NCBI RefSeq assembly: GCF_003018255.1
Contig: NZ_CP027440.1
Source: Escherichia coli
Lineage (GTDB): Bacteria > Pseudomonadota > Gammaproteobacteria > Enterobacterales > Enterobacteriaceae
DNA length: 64,000 nt
Strand: one strand, 5' to 3'
The position numbers were made by a program. Numbering within the stretch: position 1 is the first letter of the stretch; every line of letters starts with the position of its first letter. Below are positions 63,101 through 64,000 of this stretch, piece by piece.

Positions 63101-64000
63101 TCGATTTGCTTATACAGCGAGTCGAAACGTTTACTCTCGATCACCGAGGAGAACGTCAGGCAAACCTGTTCTGTATCCGCCGGACAGCTGTTACTGGACG
63201 TTACCAGCGAAACCGCATTGCTTTTCTTATTGTCGGAAGCCGCCAGTTCTTGCGCGTCCTCAAGACTAAACGACACTTTTTCAACCGCACGCAGGCTACG
63301 CGCAGCTTCTGACTGAGTGTTGAAGGTGGCAATTGTCGTGTTACCCGCCACGCAAGTAACGTCCTCACCAGGTGTAAATGTAAAGCCATCGCTGGACTCA
63401 CCATTACAGGTAGCACCAGTTACCCGCTGGCTTCCGCCCAGGGTCAGATAACCCGTTTTCGTAGGAACAGGTTCTGGCTCCGGTTCTGGCTCTGGATCAG
63501 GTGTCGGTTCCGGCGTAGGTTCTGGGTCCGGCGTTGGCTCAGGCGTCGGCTCCGGGTTTGGTGTTGGATCAGGTTTCACTTCCGGCAAAGACCCTGTTCC
63601 AGAATCTACAGGCGGCGTATCGGAGGAAGATCCGGAGCCACCGCCATCACAACCGGCTAACAGGGTTGCACTCAAAATAGCCGCTAAAAGCGATTTCTTA
63701 TATTTAAATTTCTTATTCATTAATAACGCAAGTGACAAAACAAAGTTAAAAGATTCGTAACCGGGGAAATAGTTTTATGCTTTATCTTCTTTAATAACTT
63801 CCTCCATTCTTAAGAAAACGGCATCATTGATAGAAAAACAGGTGAAATTTATAAGAATAACCCCTATTCGATGTCTGGCTGGTTATTTTTACGAAATTTC
63901 AATAAACAAAAAATTAACAACCTTTCACAACGTAACTATATAAATTTGTTGGTAGTTTTAACGATTAAGATTGCAAAAGCAACAGATAGAACGGTGTTTG

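Follow-up and report, generated by a model that had tools for sequence, protein, structure and literature searches.

The AT-rich DNA upstream of sslE in Escherichia coli is very probably the downstream half of the known H-NS/StpA-silenced, Fis-activated regulatory region

Results

Organization of the sslE locus

The window, that is, the whole stretch of 64,000 nucleotides of Escherichia coli DNA that was analysed, ends 280 bp upstream of sslE (yghJ), whose ATG lies at 63720-63718 on the minus strand and whose product has 1518 amino acids. This product matches the NCBIfam SslE model over its full length, above the cutoff of 3000 bits (Table 1). The RefSeq sslE start is identical in AR_0077, a strain different from the source of the window, and AR_0077 is 100% identical to the window over 63398-64000; its sequence was used for extension past position 64000.

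Downstream of sslE, the genes pppA, yghG and gspC-M follow, and the cluster sslE-pppA-yghG-gspC-M spans 16.45 kb (47270-63720) with the same gene order as annotated in UTI89 and H10407. Its 14 ORFs are co-oriented and separated by small gaps, which is the arrangement expected of an operon served by one upstream promoter. No strong terminator was detected within the operon, where terminator-like matches are no more frequent than in shuffled sequences, and the gap between sslE and pppA (59035-59163, 57% GC) holds only REP/BIME-like palindromes (gccggataaggcg...cgccgcatccggc). These palindromes could protect the sslE portion of the transcript from decay or reduce the transcription that continues into the secretion genes. 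In addition, a second AT-rich dip, with GC of 0.39-0.41, is located inside the operon at 57950-58400, in yghG and the yghG-pppA junction; this dip may mark a site of H-NS action or a promoter region within the operon.

At the far end of the cluster, tRNA-Phe (pheV, 47099-47270) directly adjoins gspM/yghD in the genome from which the window comes. AR_0077, with an identical sslE promoter, has a 41.7-kb integrase-bearing island at pheV that is absent from the window. At the near end, glcA is the next gene upstream of sslE, on the same strand, and the spacer between them is 483-484 bp long in AR_0077, K-12, UTI89 and H10407; therefore, the end of the window lies 203 bp short of the glcA stop codon. 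The terminator hairpin of glcA is found at 64168-64194 in extended coordinates, outside the window. The mucinase SslE is a vaccine candidate, and the T2SS-beta encoded by the operon also exports heat-labile toxin in ETEC, so the sslE control region is of practical interest; it has been analysed in detail before in ETEC, UPEC and K-12.

Table 1. Features in and around the sslE regulatory region, in window coordinates
Feature	Position	Strand	Basis
sslE (yghJ) CDS, lipoprotein metalloprotease	59164..63720	-	NCBIfam NF037973, 3485 bits; ORF; lipobox LLAGC
Rest of operon: pppA, yghG (gspS-beta), gspC-M (T2SS-beta)	47270..59034	-	ORFs; NCBIfam GspC/D/E/F/G/L/M
AT-rich tract, in-window part, ~30% GC	63660..64000	.	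60-bp GC profile and 280-bp window statistics
Inferred sslE 5' leader, ~227 nt, 29% GC	63721..63947	-	From the inferred start
Predicted intrinsic curvature peak, centre 63833 (~+115, leader)	63815..63850	.	Wedge model
Five 8/10 matches to the H-NS template, starts 63880, 63885, 63911, 63937, 63955	63880..63964	.	Motif scan
Inferred transcription start (A), +/-1 nt	63947	-	Published 5'RACE site mapped from Fis geometry and primers, text description
Candidate -10 TAAAACT (AAAACT with -11A, -7T)	63954..63960	-	Distance to inferred start; relaxed hexamer scan; invariant in 7 strains
Candidate -35 TTGCTT, 17-bp spacer to AAAACT	63977..63982	-	Relaxed hexamer scan; invariant in 7 strains
Putative Fis-binding region F2, in-window part (full 63989-64014, three overlapping sites)	63989..64000	-	Fis rules and published geometry

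Composition and limits of the AT-rich tract

The GC content of the 280 bp directly upstream of the sslE ATG (63721-64000) is 30.4%. Across the 64 kb, segments of this length average 51.8% GC (sd 5.0), which places the region at z of about -4.3, and only 0.35% of such segments are as low in GC; the operon body (47270-63720) has 54.0% GC, and sslE itself has 51.6%. The region has 0.096 TpA steps per nt, 2.2 times the 0.043 of the whole window, and nine A4+/T4+ tracts. The earlier note had described this DNA as strongly AT-rich, in sharp contrast to the operon body, and had proposed windowed GC content as a check; these values bear out both statements, and the three A/T runs that it quoted were all found.

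In the 60-bp GC profile of the window extended with AR_0077, the whole AT-rich tract runs from ~63660 to ~64230, a length of ~570 bp. It comprises the entire 483-bp glcA-sslE spacer (31.5% GC) and the first ~60 nt of sslE, which encode the signal peptide, and its edges are sharp, with GC rising to 55-67% on either side. The end of the window cuts through this tract and leaves the upstream half of the regulatory region outside. A GC content as far below the average as that given above, sustained over several hundred bp, is the composition expected of an H-NS/StpA-silenced promoter region. On the other hand, the 23 non-coding gaps of at least 100 bp in the window average 44.1 +/- 8.1% GC, and the gap upstream of sslE is only the second lowest of them; comparably AT-rich gaps are found at 24915-25060 (28% GC, upstream of galP) and 14333-14672 (31%, upstream of cmtB). 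Since these two other spacers are equally AT-rich, sequence alone would not single out H-NS at sslE. The gap at 14333-14672 is located between cmtB and a gene for 314 amino acids (14673-15617) that is absent from K-12 and appears SPFH/band-7-like by eye alone.

Transcription start, core promoter and Fis sites

Fis sites are characterised by G at -7, C at +7, R at -3 and Y at +3, with A excluded at -4 and T excluded at +4. The sslE start of UTI89 was determined by 5'RACE and agrees with the site in ETEC H10407 (Tan et al. 2016, PMC5012682). In the same work, a Fis site, F1, was placed with its centre at -138, a region F2 was described as three overlapping Fis sites from -41 to -68, and primers 5570 and 5571 served to clone the promoter. 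The sequence of 5571 is found at 63915-63936 and that of 5570 immediately past the glcA stop; therefore, the active promoter fragment corresponds to 63915-64203. Exactly four 15-mers in this fragment pass all the Fis rules, one of them centred at 64085 and three overlapping at 63989-64014, and this matches exactly the published description of F1 and F2. The published distances fit only with +1 at 63947, and between these sites UTI89 has no indels relative to the strain of the window. We infer the coordinates of the start, the -10, the -35 and F2 here, the start position by mapping the published site onto the window. The predicted F2 straddles the end of the window, F1 falls outside it, and the rule-conforming sites of F2 would lie immediately upstream of the candidate -35, as in a Fis-activated promoter.

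The candidate core promoter (TTGCTT-17-AAAACT) is located within the last ~55 bp of the window and is weak, with 6/12 matches to the consensus. In a simple consensus scan of the spacer, no sigma-70 site with at least 9/12 matches was found on either strand, and this lack of a strong consensus promoter fits an activator-dependent promoter. The relaxed scan also returned 8/12 candidates, such as TATAGT at 63935-63940, which were rejected because they are incompatible with the published Fis geometry.

In an alignment of seven strains, the block formed by F2, the -35 and the -10 is the most conserved part of the spacer, and over the 79 bp of the core block, from F2 to +13, the window does not differ from K-12 or H10407. 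A single base of F2, at 63995, is polymorphic among the seven strains, being A in the window, K-12 and H10407 and T in UTI89; this agrees with the single F2 position reported as variable among 87 genomes (Tan et al. 2016, PMC5012682). The same authors found that F2 is required for Fis activation in UTI89, where mutation of F2 abolishes it, and that Fis and the GTPase TypA are positive regulators, with fis and hns having opposite effects.

The 5' leader

With +1 at 63947, consequently, about 227 of the 280 flagged bases, the majority, would be transcribed leader, and the promoter would occupy the last ~55 bp only. No Shine-Dalgarno sequence is visible before the sslE ATG (63721-63740, tcacttgcgttattaATG). 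In the seven-strain alignment, conserved blocks of the leader are found near the ATG and around GGAGGAAG, which lies 80 nt upstream of the sslE ATG and inside a 10-codon uORF (63806-63774). This uORF was rejected, as it is not preceded by a Shine-Dalgarno sequence and the differences among strains are all non-synonymous. A 38-aa ORF on the plus strand (63827-63943) was likewise rejected as a gene. The Rfam search of the spacer on both strands returned nothing at E<=1, and the predicted fold of the leader is no more stable than those of shuffled sequences (MFE -39.7 versus -42.1 +/- 4.3, z=+0.56); Rfam and fold stability thus lend no support to a structured cis-regulatory leader RNA of the riboswitch or thermometer kind.

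H-NS and StpA

The H-NS template tCG(t/a)TA(a/t)ATt (Lang et al.) is matched five times at 8/10 positions in the 280 bp, and one of the matches, TCGTTAAAAC, overlaps the candidate -10. The density of matches is 5.8 times the window average; against shuffles of the region itself, which contain 2.75 matches on average, P=0.14, and 9/10 matches to the template are absent from the 280 bp. Intrinsic curvature was predicted with a wedge model that uses the parameters of Bolshoy et al. 1991. The peak reaches 33.0 degrees per 30 bp, at the 99.97th percentile of 67 kb, compared with 26.4 +/- 3.6 degrees in dinucleotide-preserving shuffles of the tract (P~0.05). The curvature check proposed in the earlier note thus gives a divided answer, the peak lying in the top 0.03% of the 67 kb but only marginally above what shuffled DNA of the same dinucleotide content attains. 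The H-NS motif matches and the curvature are largely explained by base composition. As these sequence proxies are weak, the case for H-NS rests on published experiments with nearly identical DNA.

Over 63721-64000, the identity is 97.9% with UTI89 and 95.4% with both K-12 and H10407. As Yang et al. 2007 (J Bacteriol 189:142) are summarised in PMC5012682, a single mRNA contains sslE and the 13 downstream T2SS genes, and the operon is repressed by H-NS and StpA in a temperature-dependent manner, with derepression in hns mutants of H10407. According to the same summary of Yang et al. 2007, the regulatory region is AT-rich and curved, purified H-NS binds the H10407 DNA, and the binding of H-NS and StpA to the regulatory region keeps the open complex from forming. 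In the work of Tan et al. 2016 (PMC5012682), deletion of hns raised sslE mRNA ~3.5-fold in UTI89 and 2.2-fold in EC958 at 22 C, and 7.2-fold in EC958 but only 1.7-fold in UTI89 at 37 C; H-NS repression in UTI89 at 37 C was weak, and complementation was unsuccessful. In K-12, the yghJ/glcA spacer is one of 78 'promoter islands' and is H-NS-bound in all ChIP studies (Panyukov & Ozoline 2013, PMC3661553). Similarly, yghJ is among the genes with multiple primary and secondary H-NS motifs (Lang et al. 2007). DeCanio 2013 contains no statement on H-NS, and the GalR paper gives a single predicted site within sslE and none in the spacer.

Variation of the tract among strains

The tract carries insertion sequences in three other strains. 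In strain 20409, IS1 adjoins the sslE ATG (window ~63720), and sslE is annotated as a pseudogene; in UTME-14, IS1B is inserted in the leader at ~+86 (window ~63861); and in RM14723, IS200C is located upstream, in the part of the tract beyond 64000. In addition, a poly-T run ~100 bp upstream of the inferred start (~64045-64052 in extended coordinates, alignment columns 185-192) varies between 6 and 9 nt among the seven strains. In the allele of the window this run is interrupted (TTATTT), and its length alters the spacing between F1 and the promoter. Tan et al. left open the strain differences in SslE output, and it is conceivable, although unlikely, that these tract variants (IS1/IS200, the poly-T run of 6-9 nt and the F2 polymorphism) explain them. 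If so, the variants would change the continuity of H-NS filaments or the phasing of Fis, as IS insertions activate bgl.

Discussion

Regulation of the sslE operon

Based on the published work on DNA that is 95-98% identical, the region studied here is very probably the downstream half of the sslE (yghJ) regulatory region known from earlier studies, a region that is silenced by H-NS/StpA and activated by Fis. Published experiments on orthologous DNA have established the binding of H-NS/StpA, the derepression in hns mutants, the dependence of Fis activation on F2 and the co-transcription of the operon. The mechanism may be pictured as follows. Transcription would begin at ~63947 from a weak sigma-70 core promoter at the very edge of the window, beside the in-window part of an activating Fis site, and an AT-rich untranslated leader of ~227 nt would continue into the AT-rich start of the sslE coding sequence. 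The ~570-bp AT-rich tract, which extends to both sides of the start, may serve as a platform on which H-NS/StpA polymerise or form bridges; RNA polymerase would then be prevented from forming the open complex. The stretch from -321 to +301 is reportedly needed for full repression, and with +1 at 63947 it would cover the whole AT-rich tract. Strong repression would prevail at ambient temperature and give way in part at 37 C, and Fis bound to F2, just upstream of the -35, would counteract it and activate the promoter, with TypA also acting positively. Finally, transcripts from the sslE promoter would read through sslE-pppA-yghG-gspC-M.

The proposal of the earlier note that the 280 bp resemble an H-NS-bound promoter gains its support from the published binding, hns derepression and ChIP on orthologous DNA, the sequence proxies being weak by themselves; the comparison with published H-NS ChIP profiles that it suggested turned out in its favour, as the K-12 spacer is bound in all studies (PMC3661553). 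Its view of the 280 bp as the promoter needs to be narrowed, because the core promoter does lie there, in the last ~55 bp, but ~227 bp would be leader and the upstream half of the regulatory region is outside the window. It had also regarded this DNA as the likely main regulatory input of the whole operon. The promoter is indeed known from published work to drive the 14-gene operon; however, Fis and TypA also act on it, and the H-NS effect at 37 C amounts to 1.7-fold in UTI89. Since Fis and TypA activate, H-NS is therefore an important input and not the sole one. The substance of this picture, including the description of the region as AT-rich and curved, is already known. The present analysis adds the positions of the published elements in the window, the point that the flagged DNA would be mostly leader, and the fact that the window halves the regulatory region.

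Alternative explanations

It may be asked whether the AT-richness is anything more than the generic composition of E. coli intergenic and promoter DNA, owing to easy melting, UP-like DNA or a terminator tail, with no specific role for H-NS here. The gaps of the window, which average 44% GC and of which 3 of 23 have 28-31%, would suit such an explanation, as would the H-NS motif matches and the curvature, which are near the composition-matched expectation. However, the genetics, in vitro binding and ChIP published for nearly identical DNA contradict it, and a tract of ~570 bp with sharp edges that reaches into the coding sequence also speaks against it; we give it only a slender chance. Still less probable is a reading of the tract as a scar of horizontal acquisition, that is, as the junction between the glc operon and the T2SS-beta island, acting mainly as a target of insertion sequences. 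In its favour are the IS1, IS1B and IS200C copies within the tract in three other strains and the link that Panyukov & Ozoline draw between 'promoter islands' and acquired genes. However, 4069 of 5426 complete genomes have the full-length spacer, its architecture is constant, the promoter block is highly conserved, and the operon body is not AT-rich. Such an origin would in any case be compatible with control by H-NS.

The main input could also be post-transcriptional and reside in the 227-nt leader, in the form of an RNA thermometer, an sRNA target, Rho-dependent attenuation or TypA-dependent translation without a Shine-Dalgarno sequence. We consider this very unlikely. The readouts for hns, fis and typA were mRNA or promoter fusions, and the fragment that ends at +33 retains Fis-dependent activity; moreover, no Rfam family is detected at E<=1, the fold scores z=+0.56 against shuffles, and the 10-codon uORF lacks a Shine-Dalgarno sequence and changes solely by non-synonymous substitutions. 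In favour of leader RNA control, the untranslated leader is long and shows no Shine-Dalgarno sequence, temperature and the ribosome-associated GTPase TypA both affect expression, and conserved blocks exist near the ATG and around GGAGGAAG. Silencing by H-NS/StpA with activation by Fis remains the preferred reading.

Comparison with known systems

The closest counterparts are the yghJ/sslE promoters of H10407 (Yang et al. 2007) and UTI89 (PMC5012682), which represent the same locus with the same flanking genes and the same operon. Relative to these, the leader in the window has 6-13 substitutions or indels, and at the one polymorphic position of F2, 63995, the window has A, unlike UTI89. The K-12 promoter island yghJ/glcA (PMC3661553) is the same spacer, and there it is bound by RNA polymerase and H-NS and is transcriptionally quiet. 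A promoter island is defined by PlatProm prediction as a very high density of start points over at least 300 bp (PMC3661553), whereas neither strand of the spacer studied here shows a strong sigma-70 site in the simple consensus scan. Experimental mapping has yielded a single start site for the yghJ/glcA island. Another E. coli T2SS cluster, K-12 gspA/gspC (T2SS-alpha), also has an AT-rich, H-NS-bound promoter-island spacer (PMC3661553). It differs in locus and gene set, has divergent promoters and lies outside the window.

H-NS silencing from elements on both sides of the start is known from proU (URE/DRE) and bgl, and temperature-dependent interplay of H-NS and Fis is known from Shigella virF. 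Unlike proU, the sslE region holds no 9/10 match to the proU-type high-affinity site. As in proU and bgl, however, the AT-rich DNA of sslE flanks +1 on both sides, and the IS insertions in the sslE-glcA tract resemble those at the H-NS-silenced bgl. Similarly, as in Shigella virF, repression of sslE is relieved at 37 C and the antagonist Fis would be located beside the -35.
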